In this document: piece after piece, positions 18,593-21,878 of the stretch
Numbering within the stretch: position 1 is the first letter of the stretch
Layout of the letters: every line of letters starts with the position of its first letter
Program-made: the position numbers and the translations under genes
NCBI GenBank assembly: GCA_043809585.1
Contig: JBDROZ010000082.1
Coordinates: forward strand, 1 to 58,313
DNA length: 58,313 nt
Source: Candidatus Eiseniibacteriota bacterium
Lineage (GTDB): Bacteria > Orphanbacterota > Orphanbacteria > Orphanbacterales > Orphanbacteraceae
Direction: 5' to 3'
The notes under the pieces: generated by a model
What the model saw: the letters and a program-made list of their open reading frames with translations, nothing else
Databases searched by the model: none
Told to the model about the DNA's origin: nothing

Positions 18593-18646
18593 CTCTAACG
18601 CTCAGCATCAGCTGCGGCGCGAAGCGTCGTCAGCTGCATGCTGTTG
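18593..18646 (-). other. attC site, main part (split by IS; remainder at 20292-20299)
   Basis: Removing the IS restores CTCTAAC GCTCAGCATCAGCTGCGGCGCGAAGCGTCGTCAGCTGCATGCTGTT GTTCGGC (+ strand), a short classical attC. Confidence 0.9.
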
Positions 18647-18733
18647 ATACTCATCAAGGCCCCCTGGGGCCTACCCCGATTTCGGGGTAGGCTGGTGGTG
18701 TCCAGTATCCACCCAACCCAGGAGGTGAAAACC

Positions 18734-19777
18734 ATGAGATTCTACACCGGACAACACCAACACTACTGCGGTGTCGATCTACACGCCCGATCGATCTACG
18801 TCTGTGTTCTCGATCGGGAGGGGAACACGGTGTTGCACCGGAACTTGTGTGCCAACCCCGATGTCTTCCTTCACGCCGTCCGGCCCTTCTCGGATGATCT
18901 CGTCGTCGGCGCTGAGTGCATGTTCACCTGGTACTGGCTGGCCGACCTCTGCCGGGACGCCGGGATCCCCTTCGTCCTGGGACACGCCCTCTACATGAAG
19001 GCGATCCACGGCGCCAAGGCCAAGAACGACCGCATCGACTCGGCCAAGATCGCCGCACTCCTCAAGGGCGGGACCTTCCCGGTCGCCTATGTCTACCCCC
19101 GGGAGTGGCGATCCACACGAGACCTCCTCCGAAGGAGGCTCCACCTCGTCCGAAAGCGCGGCGAGCTCGTCGCCCACATCCAGAACACCTACCACCAGCA
19201 GAACCTCCCCGCCCCCTCCGCCAAGCTGCGCTACCGCGCCAACCGCGCCGGCGTCGCCGACGTCTTCCCCGACCGCAGCGTCCAGAAGAACGTCGCCGTC
19301 GACCTCGCGGTTGCCGACCGGCTCGACCAGGTCATCCGCGACCTCGAGTCGTTCTTGACGCGCCGGGTCAAGGTGCACGACCCCGACAACTTCCACCGGT
19401 TGCGATCCATTCCCGGCGTCGGGAAAATCCTGGCCATGACCTTCCTTTACGAAATTCACGACATCGACCGCTTCCCGAGGGTGCAGGACTTCTCCTCCTA
19501 CGCACGCCTCGTGAAATGCGCGCACGAGTCGGGTGGCAGGCGGTCGGGAACCGGCGGGGCCAAGATCGGGAACGCCCACCTCCGCTGGGCCTTCGGCGAA
19601 GCGGTCCTTCTGATGCTGAGGGAGAGCGAGGAGCTCAAGAAACGGCGCCGTCGCCTCGAACGGAAACACGGAAAGGGGAAGTCGCTCGCCATTCTCGCTC
19701 ACAAGCTCGGGCGGGCAGTCTACTTCATGATGAAACGGAAGAGGGTTTTTCAGATGGAACGCTTTCTGGCGGCTTGA
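18734..19777 (+). CDS. IS110-family DEDD transposase/recombinase
   Basis: GVDLH, GAE, KNDRID catalytic residues; SIPGVG; HESGG; GNAHLRWA; ILAHKLGR; AGGAGGT RBS. Confidence 0.95.
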   Translation: MRFYTGQHQHYCGVDLHARSIYVCVLDREGNTVLHRNLCANPDVFLHAVRPFSDDLVVGAECMFTWYWLADLCRDAGIPFVLGHALYMKAIHGAKAKNDRIDSAKIAALLKGGTFPVAYVYPREWRSTRDLLRRRLHLVRKRGELVAHIQNTYHQQNLPAPSAKLRYRANRAGVADVFPDRSVQKNVAVDLAVADRLDQVIRDLESFLTRRVKVHDPDNFHRLRSIPGVGKILAMTFLYEIHDIDRFPRVQDFSSYARLVKCAHESGGRRSGTGGAKIGNAHLRWAFGEAVLLMLRESEELKKRRRRLERKHGKGKSLAILAHKLGRAVYFMMKRKRVFQMERFLAA

Positions 19778-19789
19778 GGAGCCACCCAT

Positions 19790-20260
19790 ATCGGAGGGAG
19801 GAGAGTGAGCCCAACGTCTAACTGGAGCCGCCAACGGCCAAGCCCGATTCGACCGCCATCTATAGGGAACTCGAGTCCATCCGTGGTCGTGGGATTTTTG
19901 CCGGGCAGCCCCTGCGCTTTGATTGGACGCTCTCCTTCGCTCCGTGTTCAGGACGGCATTCTCTTCGGCTCTGCCCCTCCCCCGAGCCCGCGCATAACTG
20001 GACGGACGAGCTCGGCTCGTCGAACCCGACTCTTGAAAGGGACGGTTTGAGGGCACGAACGAGCTTCTAGGGCGCGAGGTCATCCGGACTCGCTCAGCCG
20101 ATCTCGGCCGGCTTACCAGCTGACGAGCTCTCGGTGACGATCCTCGATGAGTGTTTGGTGCGGAGCCCGATCTCCGCACCCACTGTGAAGCGAAGTCAGG
20201 ACGTCGAGAATGACCGGACACCATCGTCGCCTCTCTCGCAAGACGGTGACTCAGGGGGAA
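19790..20260 (+). ncRNA. Candidate bridge/seek RNA of the IS1111-type element
   Basis: Structured region downstream of tnp lacking a credible ORF; repeated GAGCCC-N5/6-TAACTGGA...TTGA..GGACG modules; boundaries approximate. Confidence 0.6.
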
Positions 20261-20268
20261 CTTTTTCC

Positions 20269-20293
20269 TTGCGCCCCGGGGGCCTTATGAGTG
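20269..20293 (+). promoter_or_regulatory. -35 half of a circle-junction promoter
   Basis: TTGCGC at 20269-20274; on circularisation an 18-bp spacer leads to GATACT from the left end (18646-18651). Confidence 0.5.
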
Positions 20294-20324
20294 TTCGGCG
20301 CCTCTCGTAAGCAGGACTCGTACA

Positions 20325-21506: not shown

Positions 21507-21878
21507 TCATGGCTCCCGATCCAAAGGGCTGCGCGCTCCACGGCCGCCCCGGTTGAGGACGTGCGTGTAGACTATGGTTGTGCTCGCATCTCGATACCCG
21601 AGCAGTTCTTGGATCGTACGGATGTCGTTGCCCGCTTCCAGCAGATGAGTCGCGGAGGAGTGCCTGAATGCATGGCAAGTCGCCCCGATGTGCGCCTCCT
21701 CCGTTCGCGGACTATAGTGGCGCGCACGGATCACGTCGCGGACCTCGTCGAAGAGGCGGGGTTTGGGGAAGGGAGATCGATCCTCGCGGACGAAGGAGGT
21801 CGGCGGAAGCACTGGATAAGGTGGGGTTGGGTAAGCGGTTACTGTCGAAGAGGTCGCGATCATCTCAGCTCCCCCCAC
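21507..21878 (-). pseudogene. intI: Integron integrase with a large in-frame internal deletion
   Basis: N-terminal [24 protein letters not shown] joined directly to C-terminal [55 protein letters not shown]. Confidence 0.9.

Follow-up and report, generated by a model that had tools for sequence, protein, structure and literature searches.

Bridge and seek RNAs are under development as programmable recombination tools, and nearly all mechanistic work on them has been carried out on the IS110 group (IS621, ISCro4). For the IS1111 group, passages of PMC11187229 describe the seekRNAs of ISEc11, ISPa11, ISKpn4 and ISPst6, in which the match to the top strand lies 5' of the match to the bottom strand, and the lengths given in parts of PMC13604230 are 82-96 nt for short and 148-172 nt for long seekRNAs. 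Here we describe an IS1111-group insertion sequence (IS) in a 58,313-nt stretch of DNA from a Candidatus Eiseniibacteriota bacterium (contig JBDROZ010000082.1, the whole of which is called the window; features lie on its plus strand unless stated otherwise). The 3' non-coding region of this element, at 19778-20295, most likely encodes a long, multi-domain bridge/seek RNA, a reading that is drawn from sequence comparison and that we hold with reasonable confidence. Its architecture is most likely larger than that of the known RNAs, as it appears to combine a clean target loop (module 1), donor-reading strands located in junctions, and a duplicated target-like loop (module 2).

The element comprises 1,650 bp (18646-20295) with TT at both junctions. 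Its start, GATACTCATC directly after TT, and its stop, directly after ATGAGTGTT, are the limits of homology in a pairwise alignment with a second copy of the element, 87% identical, on another contig (C23) of the same genome; the left limit of homology with this copy is TTGATACT, and the right end at 20295 is set by the C23 alignment together with 50 complete relatives. A left tip of 10 nt and a right tip of 9 nt lie outside the sub-terminal inverted repeats, AAGGCCCCC.. and ..GGGGGCCTT. The left end (18646-18669) consists of the 10-nt GATACTCATC followed by the repeat AAGGCCCCCTGGGG (18656-18669), the reverse complement of 20275-20286, and the right end (20275-20295), delimited by alignment of the copy and the relatives, consists of CCCCGGGGGCCTT (20275-20287) followed by ATGAGTG and the TT core. 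Set back 10 and 9 nt from the tips, these repeats are of the IS1111 type (7-17 bp, sub-terminal), which is present in 89 complete relatives. The transposase gene (18734-19777) encodes a DEDD-type protein of 347 amino acids with the Pfam domains DEDD_Tnp_IS110 and Transposase_20 (PF01548, E 2.2e-13; PF02371, E 2.8e-20). It is preceded by a short left end, with 88 nt before the ATG, and followed by 518 nt of non-coding sequence after the stop (19778-20295), the arrangement of IS1111 elements. Insertion is site-specific and proceeds without target duplication, with a shared core dinucleotide. The assignment to the IS110/IS1111 type made in an earlier reading of the bare sequence (the original prediction) is borne out by the Pfam domains, the sub-terminal inverted repeats and the long non-coding region downstream of the transposase gene.

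The C23 copy (L002, C23:33783-35479; L numbers denote individual element loci) carries a 1-nt deletion in its transposase gene (GGGC-GGACC, alignment column ~571), and because of this deletion tblastn spans only residues 71-346 in one frame. This copy is probably broken in the transposase gene, with its non-coding region intact. Near the right end of most elements, a TTGAC(A)-like box (TTGCGC in the window, 20269-20274) is located 21 nt before the tip; in a circle junction it would face the left-end GATACT at a 21-nt spacing, which is long for a sigma-70 promoter.

The subfamily is widespread. Relatives were recognised in 274 of 307 candidate stretches in genome contigs and in 571 of 599 in metagenome contigs, making at least 571 in metagenomes, and plasmid copies occur in cultured Vibrio and Alteromonas. 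The best 80 of the 274 and 80 of the 571 were kept for analysis. Both ends could be placed by one rule at 89 of 165 loci, the others being cut by contig ends or failing the rule. Among the relatives the non-coding region after the stop measures 441-637 nt, and the three-domain layout described below recurs in all 89 complete relatives examined. The same layout is found on plasmids of Vibrio campbellii ATCC BAA-1116, of Alteromonas macleodii MIT1002 and of a metagenome-assembled genome of Ca. Manganitrophus. The Vibrio campbellii plasmid relative (L083:68-1084) lies ~340 bp downstream of another annotated IS110-family transposase gene.

The non-coding region contains a scaffold that occurs twice with differing variable bases, as the original prediction had claimed. 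The first copy, GAGCCC-AACGTC-TAACTGGA, is located at 19807-19826 and the second, GAGCCC-GCGCA-TAACTGGA, at 19984-20002; the pattern GAGCCCN{5,6}TAACTGGA matches twice in the 58-kb window where zero matches are expected, and none of 100 shuffles gave any match, so that the duplication is real and far beyond chance. Module 1 (19796-19939), built around the first copy, is composed of an outer stem, a CC/GG mini-helix (19810-19811 with 19925-19926), an internal loop and an inner stem-loop, and the closing strings that had been proposed for it are in place (GGAGAGTG at 19800-19807, CGCTCTCC at 19928-19935). Its helices covary: in an alignment of 45 of the 50 complete elements then known, from which five second sites of the same IS were omitted, pairing is kept in 92.0% of cells, as opposed to 36-51% when the partner strand is slid by 1-3 columns, and double changes occur at each of the 18 pairs.

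A second domain (19968-20202) is closed by helix H0 (19968-19973 with 20197-20202) and holds module 2 together with junctions that contain donor-matching strands. Aligned in 43 of the 50 elements (seven omitted), it has 29 pairs in seven helices with 90.4% of cells paired, 14 pairs being changed on both sides; slid controls reach 34-56%. One pair of H0 switches between UA (20), GC (13) and UG (9). From 5' to 3', H0 encloses module 2 (19975-20053), then a single-stranded stretch (20054-20062), then helix H1 (20063-20067 with 20187-20191), the latter appearing as GUUUC/GAAAC, GCUUC/GAAGC, GAUUC/GAAUC and AUUUC/GAAAU in different elements. The closure of module 2 by TGCCC/GGGCA, as originally proposed, has to be replaced: covariation supports CCCUC/GAGGG (19975-19979 with 20049-20053; 99.5% of cells paired), and the bases just 5' of CCCUC (19968-19973) pair with 20197-20202 in H0. 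Inside H1, a three-way junction is formed by H2 (20069-20072 with 20141-20144), the strand CG-AUGAGUG-UU-U and hairpin H3. H2 closes a variable arm, which in L034, L039, L060 and L081 holds a common insert of ~120 nt with CCGACGAGCA and CCCATTCTCG (alignment columns ~160-290). Hairpin H3 (GGUGCGGAG-CCCGAU-CUCCGCACC, 20157-20180) has a minimum free energy of -20.2 kcal/mol (z -4.11). Column-wise pairing in H3 reaches only 71.5% of cells, and its covariation count is weak because the 3' half is badly aligned; L028 shows GGUUCAG/CUGAACC at this place.

Together, module 1 and the second domain form a conserved, structured non-coding end with compensatory changes, as expected of a bridge RNA. Given the open reading frames that this GC-rich sequence contains (81 amino acids at 19805-20050, and an antisense frame of 481 amino acids), the region could also be taken for protein-coding sequence, or for unconstrained spacer, rather than RNA. 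Neither frame belongs to a Pfam family, however, the length differences among relatives do not come in threes, and conservation follows the helices with their compensatory changes. We give this alternative almost no credence. The bridge/seek RNA would be transcribed together with, or just after, the transposase gene.

Across 81 distinct insertion sites, the target logo reads TC(G)GCTGCA-N5-TT^AGGC(G)GC. All elements have TT at their right end; at the left junction, 49 of the 81 sites have TT, and others have AT (12), GT (9), CT (7) or TG (4). The internal loop of module 1 contains two strands that relate to this site. On its 5' strand (19815-19822), the candidate right-target guide CGUCU is followed by AA, the complement of the core, and by a C that could pair with the last G of the right end; on its 3' strand (19913-19923), the candidate left-target guide UGCGCU is followed by the core UU and by GAU, identical to the first three nucleotides of the left end. 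This refines two elements of the original prediction. TAAC, which had been assigned to the constant scaffold, is here read as U-AA-C, in which U closes the target guide, AA complements the TT core and C could pair with the last G of the right end; of AACGTC, which had been called variable, CGUC does belong to the guide and the preceding AA is free loop.

Both strands follow the flanks of the elements in which they are found. In 77-80 distinct element/site pairs, with five non-core bases scored per strand, the 5' strand, which ends in ..G-Y-C-U-A-A, complementing the right flank's top strand TT-A/G-G-G/A-C, scores 3.74/5 against the right flank with wobble pairs allowed, compared with 3.54 after shuffling (0/3000 shuffles as high). 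The 3' strand agrees with its own left flank (-7..-3) at 2.39/5 positions, compared with 1.54 in shuffled pairs (z 7.2, 0/3000 shuffles). Both signals are seen in register 0 only and are strongest at -4 and -5. Matching guide changes accompany flanks that start with C, AT or AGC (L030, L060, L028, L003), and in most of the elements compared, the module 1 loops predict a site similar to the actual one. Module 1 alone has internal-loop strands that match opposite target strands around the core. No covariation was detected between the inner-stem strand of module 1 and the conserved target block at -18..-7 (z at most 2.1).

The covariation of its structure and the correspondence of guides and flanks, both seen by comparison of relatives, identify module 1 as the target-binding loop, and from them we infer the pairing itself. 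The 5' strand (..CGUCU-AA-C) would pair with the target top strand at TT-RGGC, and the 3' strand (left-flank bases-UU-GAU) with the left flank and core on the bottom strand. Because GAU repeats the opening trinucleotide of the left end, both strands would be fully paired with the new junctions after strand exchange; we infer a handshake role for this trinucleotide.

The third domain, D3, is the junction strand CG-AUGAGUG-UU-UGG (20145-20158) between H2 and H3. Its sequence repeats the final 7 nt of the right end and the TT core, and adds UGG, which is similar to how the right flank begins (A/G-G-G). As had been pointed out in the original prediction, the ATGAGTGTT of this domain (20147-20155) is identical to the right end plus core (20287-20295); the string occurs exactly twice in the window, where 0.05 occurrences are expected, and none of 100 shuffles gave two matches. 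Of 44 distinct elements, 32 have a D3 9-mer identical to their own right end, and over the set the mean number of mismatches is 0.39 as opposed to 1.02 when right ends are shuffled among elements (0/5000 shuffles as good). The exceptions are eleven elements with one differing base, one with two, and L074, which has no clear 9-mer. Rare right ends are accompanied by matching rare D3 strands, as in L069 (ATATATGTT) and L035 (AAGGGTT). D3 is identical to the top strand and would therefore, as RNA, base-pair with the right end and core on the bottom strand. We read D3, placed in the three-way junction, as a donor guide for the right end.

A second, weaker donor contact may be provided by the strand before H1. 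Within 20054-20067, which includes this strand and the 5' strand of H1 (GCUUC, 20063-20067), complementarity just ahead of H1 marks a candidate left-end guide: against left-end positions 6-10, the 5 nt preceding H1 score 3.56/5 complementary bases compared with 2.70 shuffled (0/5000), and in clades in which the two ends differ, the pre-H1 strand follows the left end and not the right. In the window copy, it scores only 3/5. The donor match is strong at the right end (32/44 identical) and weak at the left, where it falls at positions 6-10 and not beside the core. About five bases just outside H1 would make this contact.

As D3 repeats the right end in the DNA as well, it might be mainly a DNA feature, namely a second, internal right end through which the terminal 137-140 bp of the element could move or duplicate, similar to the A'/B' boxes of ISPpu9, an element that, according to parts of PMC12288879, forms several circles from repeated end boxes. 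One relative fits this description: in contig L086 (1796-1875), a complete right end is followed by an exact 80/80 repeat, up to the contig end, of the 137-nt tail that comes after D3. Such a tail duplication was seen in 1 of the 79 elements examined, however, and on a short metagenome contig; most of the sub-terminal repeat is absent at D3 (GCCUC as opposed to GGCCUU), and no left-end-like box follows it. A guide identical to the top strand unavoidably leaves a DNA copy of the right end, so this explanation is compatible with the donor-guide reading of D3 and does not replace it. On its own, we consider it highly unlikely.

Module 2 (19975-20053) shares the architecture of module 1, with a closing stem and CC/GG followed by a helix of three pairs, an internal loop and, inside it, a hairpin (20005-20022). 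Its helices CCCUC/GAGGG, CC/GG and CCC/GGG are supported by covariation; the three-pair helix switches CCU/AGG with CCC/GGG, the CCY/RGG pair being UA in 23 and CG in 20 elements. The internal loop has G-CGCA-UAA-C (19990-19998) on its 5' side and CCCGACUC-UU-GAAA (20025-20038) on its 3' side; CUAA and UUGA(A/U), respectively, are the bases retained on these two strands. R1, a covariance model built on module 2, recovers it in 40/40 and in 88/89 complete elements; L083, the sole miss, was matched at E 0.00088 in a smaller search. A comparison of the window and C23 copies suggested the roles of the three parts: the module 1 loops differ (CAAC vs CUCU on the 5' strand, CU vs UC on the 3' strand), those of module 2 are identical, and D3 and the right end share a G-to-A change (ATGAGTGTT in the window, ATAAGTGTT in C23), pointing to target, something constant, and donor, respectively.

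The original prediction accounted for the second module as another programmable target loop, which would confer a second specificity or read the other arm of a folded attC-like hairpin. Module 2 does have the architecture and the core-proximal bases of module 1, and part of a preprint (10.1101/2025.10.25.684509) reports a truncated target-loop RNA that cooperates with the bridge RNA in an IS110 element. Its 3' strand also shows a weak, register-specific match to the left flank beside the core (1.79/5 vs 1.38, z 4.2), to which -2 (U or A, in step with a TT or AT junction) and -3 contribute most. The left flank, however, sides with module 1 and not module 2 at -4 and -5 (36 vs 5 and 23 vs 9). 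The 5' strand matches neither the right flank (1.59/5 vs 1.63 shuffled) nor the left end of the donor (1.30 vs 1.25 shuffled), and within 100 nt on each side the strands of modules 1 and 2 match the distal flanks no better than shuffled sequences, save for one borderline case (6/300). The close copies L001-L003 occupy three different sites with the same module 2 loops. When the 14-mer that module 2 would specify as a second target is sought in the host genome with up to 3 mismatches allowed, it yields 168 matches compared with 219 for the control, none of the 168 with 0 or 1 mismatch; in the loci it has chance-level matches only, at no consistent place. A second target loop is therefore unlikely in our view, and neither the two specificities nor the two-arm recognition of attC is retained.

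Module 2 might also be the true donor-binding loop, a second recombinase platform that holds the donor core, with D3 being auxiliary or vestigial. One protein should recognise two like scaffolds, and it is modules 1 and 2 that share theirs, the junction of D3 being different; moreover, UAAC and UUGA(U) could pair with the G-TT-G and TT-GAT of a circle junction. Apart from these 4-5 bases, module 2 has nothing that tracks the ends. The -3 base of its 3' strand is never the donor G and the C of CUAA is never complementary to left-end base 2, so module 2 is not a donor loop by pairing, and the tracking of the right end by D3 in 32/44 elements is unlike a vestige, in the absence of selection or repeated conversion. 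We consider a donor-binding role of module 2 improbable.

The original prediction of a bridge/seek RNA with a donor-matching segment is supported by the covarying structure, the link of module 1 to the target and the link of D3 to the right end. Guide bases follow the target in module 1 and the right end in D3, whereas the variable bases of module 2 follow neither target, donor, distal flank nor the other loop. The module 2 strands were also compared with each other and with the module 1 loop strands as RNA-RNA pairs, and were not above shuffled; mutual information between all non-coding columns and flank positions in 44 elements gave noise only. No DNA partner having been found for its variable loop bases, we interpret module 2 as a degenerate copy of the target loop placed within the donor domain. 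It may serve mainly as a second recombinase platform beside the donor strands, and would make at most a short-range contact to the left flank beside the core. A related view divides the RNA into two cooperating units, with module 1 as a stand-alone target RNA and the H0-closed domain joining a relaxed target-like loop to the donor junctions, giving three DNA-reading sites; this seems rather unlikely.

Several observations weigh against the multi-domain bridge/seek RNA proposed here. Single-sequence folding is no better than for shuffled sequences over the whole region (z -0.30), or for module 1 (z -0.87) and module 2 (z -0.73), unlike for H3, and Rfam gave no family match, only a chance-level miRNA match at E 5. 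In the window copy, the right guide has one mismatch and one wobble against its own site, and the left guide fits its site poorly, with little beyond the core. No RNA segment tested was found to follow the target block at -16..-8. The left-end guide is weak (3.56/5), with its adjacent strand paired within the RNA in H1, and opening the H1 strand would meet two conserved U-T mismatches. In L086, the right end is joined to post-D3 sequence, which implies that D3, as DNA, can also be a site of recombination. Model R1 does not recover module 1 (at most 2.8 bits), so the term paralogue for module 2 rests on architecture and motifs and not on scored homology. Finally, the shuffle tests take no account of relatedness among the elements, a caveat that the register slides answer only in part.

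The insertion site in the window has a structure of its own. The left flank (18595-18645) is an imperfect hairpin repeat (palindrome CAGCATCAGCTG...CAGCTGCATGCTG) that ends in the TT core (18644-18645) and forms the left target half; the bulged hairpin extends from CTCTAAC to G-TT. Other contigs (from sequencing runs X2 and X3) share only 18595/18597-18646 with the window and then continue with TTAGGCC.. or with TTAGACGG.. / TTAGACG, the diverging continuations after the shared 50-bp hairpin being TTAGGCCGCC.. or TTAGACGGCC... These contigs look like unoccupied copies of the target repeat. The right guide of the window copy, CGUCUAA, is a perfect 7-mer match to TTAGACG, one of these continuations. 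Contigs from three DNA runs contained no empty site and no circle junction for the window copy, a BLAST search with the flank hairpin found no second copy in the assembly, and target-like patterns in the host genome did not form a repeat family. Across the 81 sites, the best conserved part of the target is the block at -16..-8 (TCGGCTGCA), which is kept across several phyla.

Elements of the IS1111-attC group insert into attC sites, imperfect palindromes with RYYYAAC at one boundary and GTTRRRY at the other that lie in cassette arrays. Within attC, ISKpn4 inserts elsewhere, at AA*CG, according to part of PMC13604230. At the sites of the present subfamily, TT is followed by RRRY in 38/81, and the full GTTRRRY is found in only 2/81. 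The original prediction had taken the GTCTAAC of module 1 for an attC R-box: its complement GTTAGAC does fit GTTRRRY and the unoccupied copies of the flank repeat. A simple scan of the window for attC-like sites found none, the left flanks of the 81 sites have no excess of simple stems, and a loose scan for hairpin-loop motifs, with 428 matches, was uninformative. The same genome encodes an integron integrase (contig C42:41560-42500, minus strand; 395.5 bits, cut-off 265 bits). An attC-like target is possible and would fit the flank hairpin, the sharing of the unit among contigs and this integrase.

Further features of the genomes touch on such sites. Two similar hairpins (GATGGCGCGGCGCGAAGCGTCCGCGCCATC) are located near C42:38304 and C42:41332, within 3.3 kb of the 3' end of the integrase gene, one of them followed by TTAGAC. 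Partial matches to the C-terminal part of integron integrases, below cut-off at 88 and 69 bits, occur in the window at 21516-21683 (minus strand) and at C23:27163-27318, ~1.2 kb and ~6 kb from the two IS copies. In the genomes of five relatives, the generic pattern GCNNNTTAGGC is rarer than its control; in two relatives' genomes its matches are clustered a few kb apart on one strand (G005:C1:855275-862430, G002:C1:2652841-2670685), reminiscent of arrays of repeated sites.

Should module 2 turn out to act as a protein platform or as a third reading site, this would tell how IS1111 recombinases assemble on their RNA, and module 2 could give a further design handle. If the RNA consists of two cooperating units, module 2 would be a third, separately evolvable loop, and a direct-transfer or excision pathway would be possible, or an arrangement in which the left flank and the donor are held together. 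The self-copy of the right end within the RNA gene, together with the one tail duplication, bears on how self-targeting is avoided or exploited.

Compared with the IS1111 seekRNAs in the passages of PMC11187229, the RNA likewise sits downstream of the gene for the transposase, and module 1 shows the same strand order. The non-coding region is much longer here, with 518 nt (441-637 nt in relatives), module 1 alone measuring ~140 nt and being followed by the second closed domain of ~235 nt with its look-alike loop and right-end copy. In the literature on IS1111 bridge and seek RNAs, supplements and figures aside, we found no duplicated target-like loop, which is not proof of its absence. The bridge RNAs predicted for IS1111 elements by Durrant et al. 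2024 (PMC11208160) are similar in having donor bases in a multi-loop and the RNA in the right end; for the six elements drawn there, the text and legends give the basis of this comparison. ISPpu9, as described in parts of PMC12288879, resembles the present element in that a repeated end box allows alternative recombination products, as in L086. It differs in belonging to the IS110 group and in carrying an extra module with both end boxes and a small RNA gene, whereas here only the right-end half is repeated, inside a structured RNA. The bridge RNA of IS621 (PMC11208160, PMC13626964) shares with the RNA proposed here one target loop and separate donor bases, the reading of both strands around a shared core dinucleotide, and extra bases that fit the partner after exchange (handshake guides). 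In contrast to IS621, in which the RNA is encoded 5' of the gene and the core is CT, the present RNA follows the gene on its 3' side, its strands come in the opposite order and the core is TT. Its donor bases are placed in the strands of a multi-branch junction rather than in a simple internal loop, the handshake-like stretch comprises 3 nt (GAU) on one strand, and a third loop with target-loop architecture is added.

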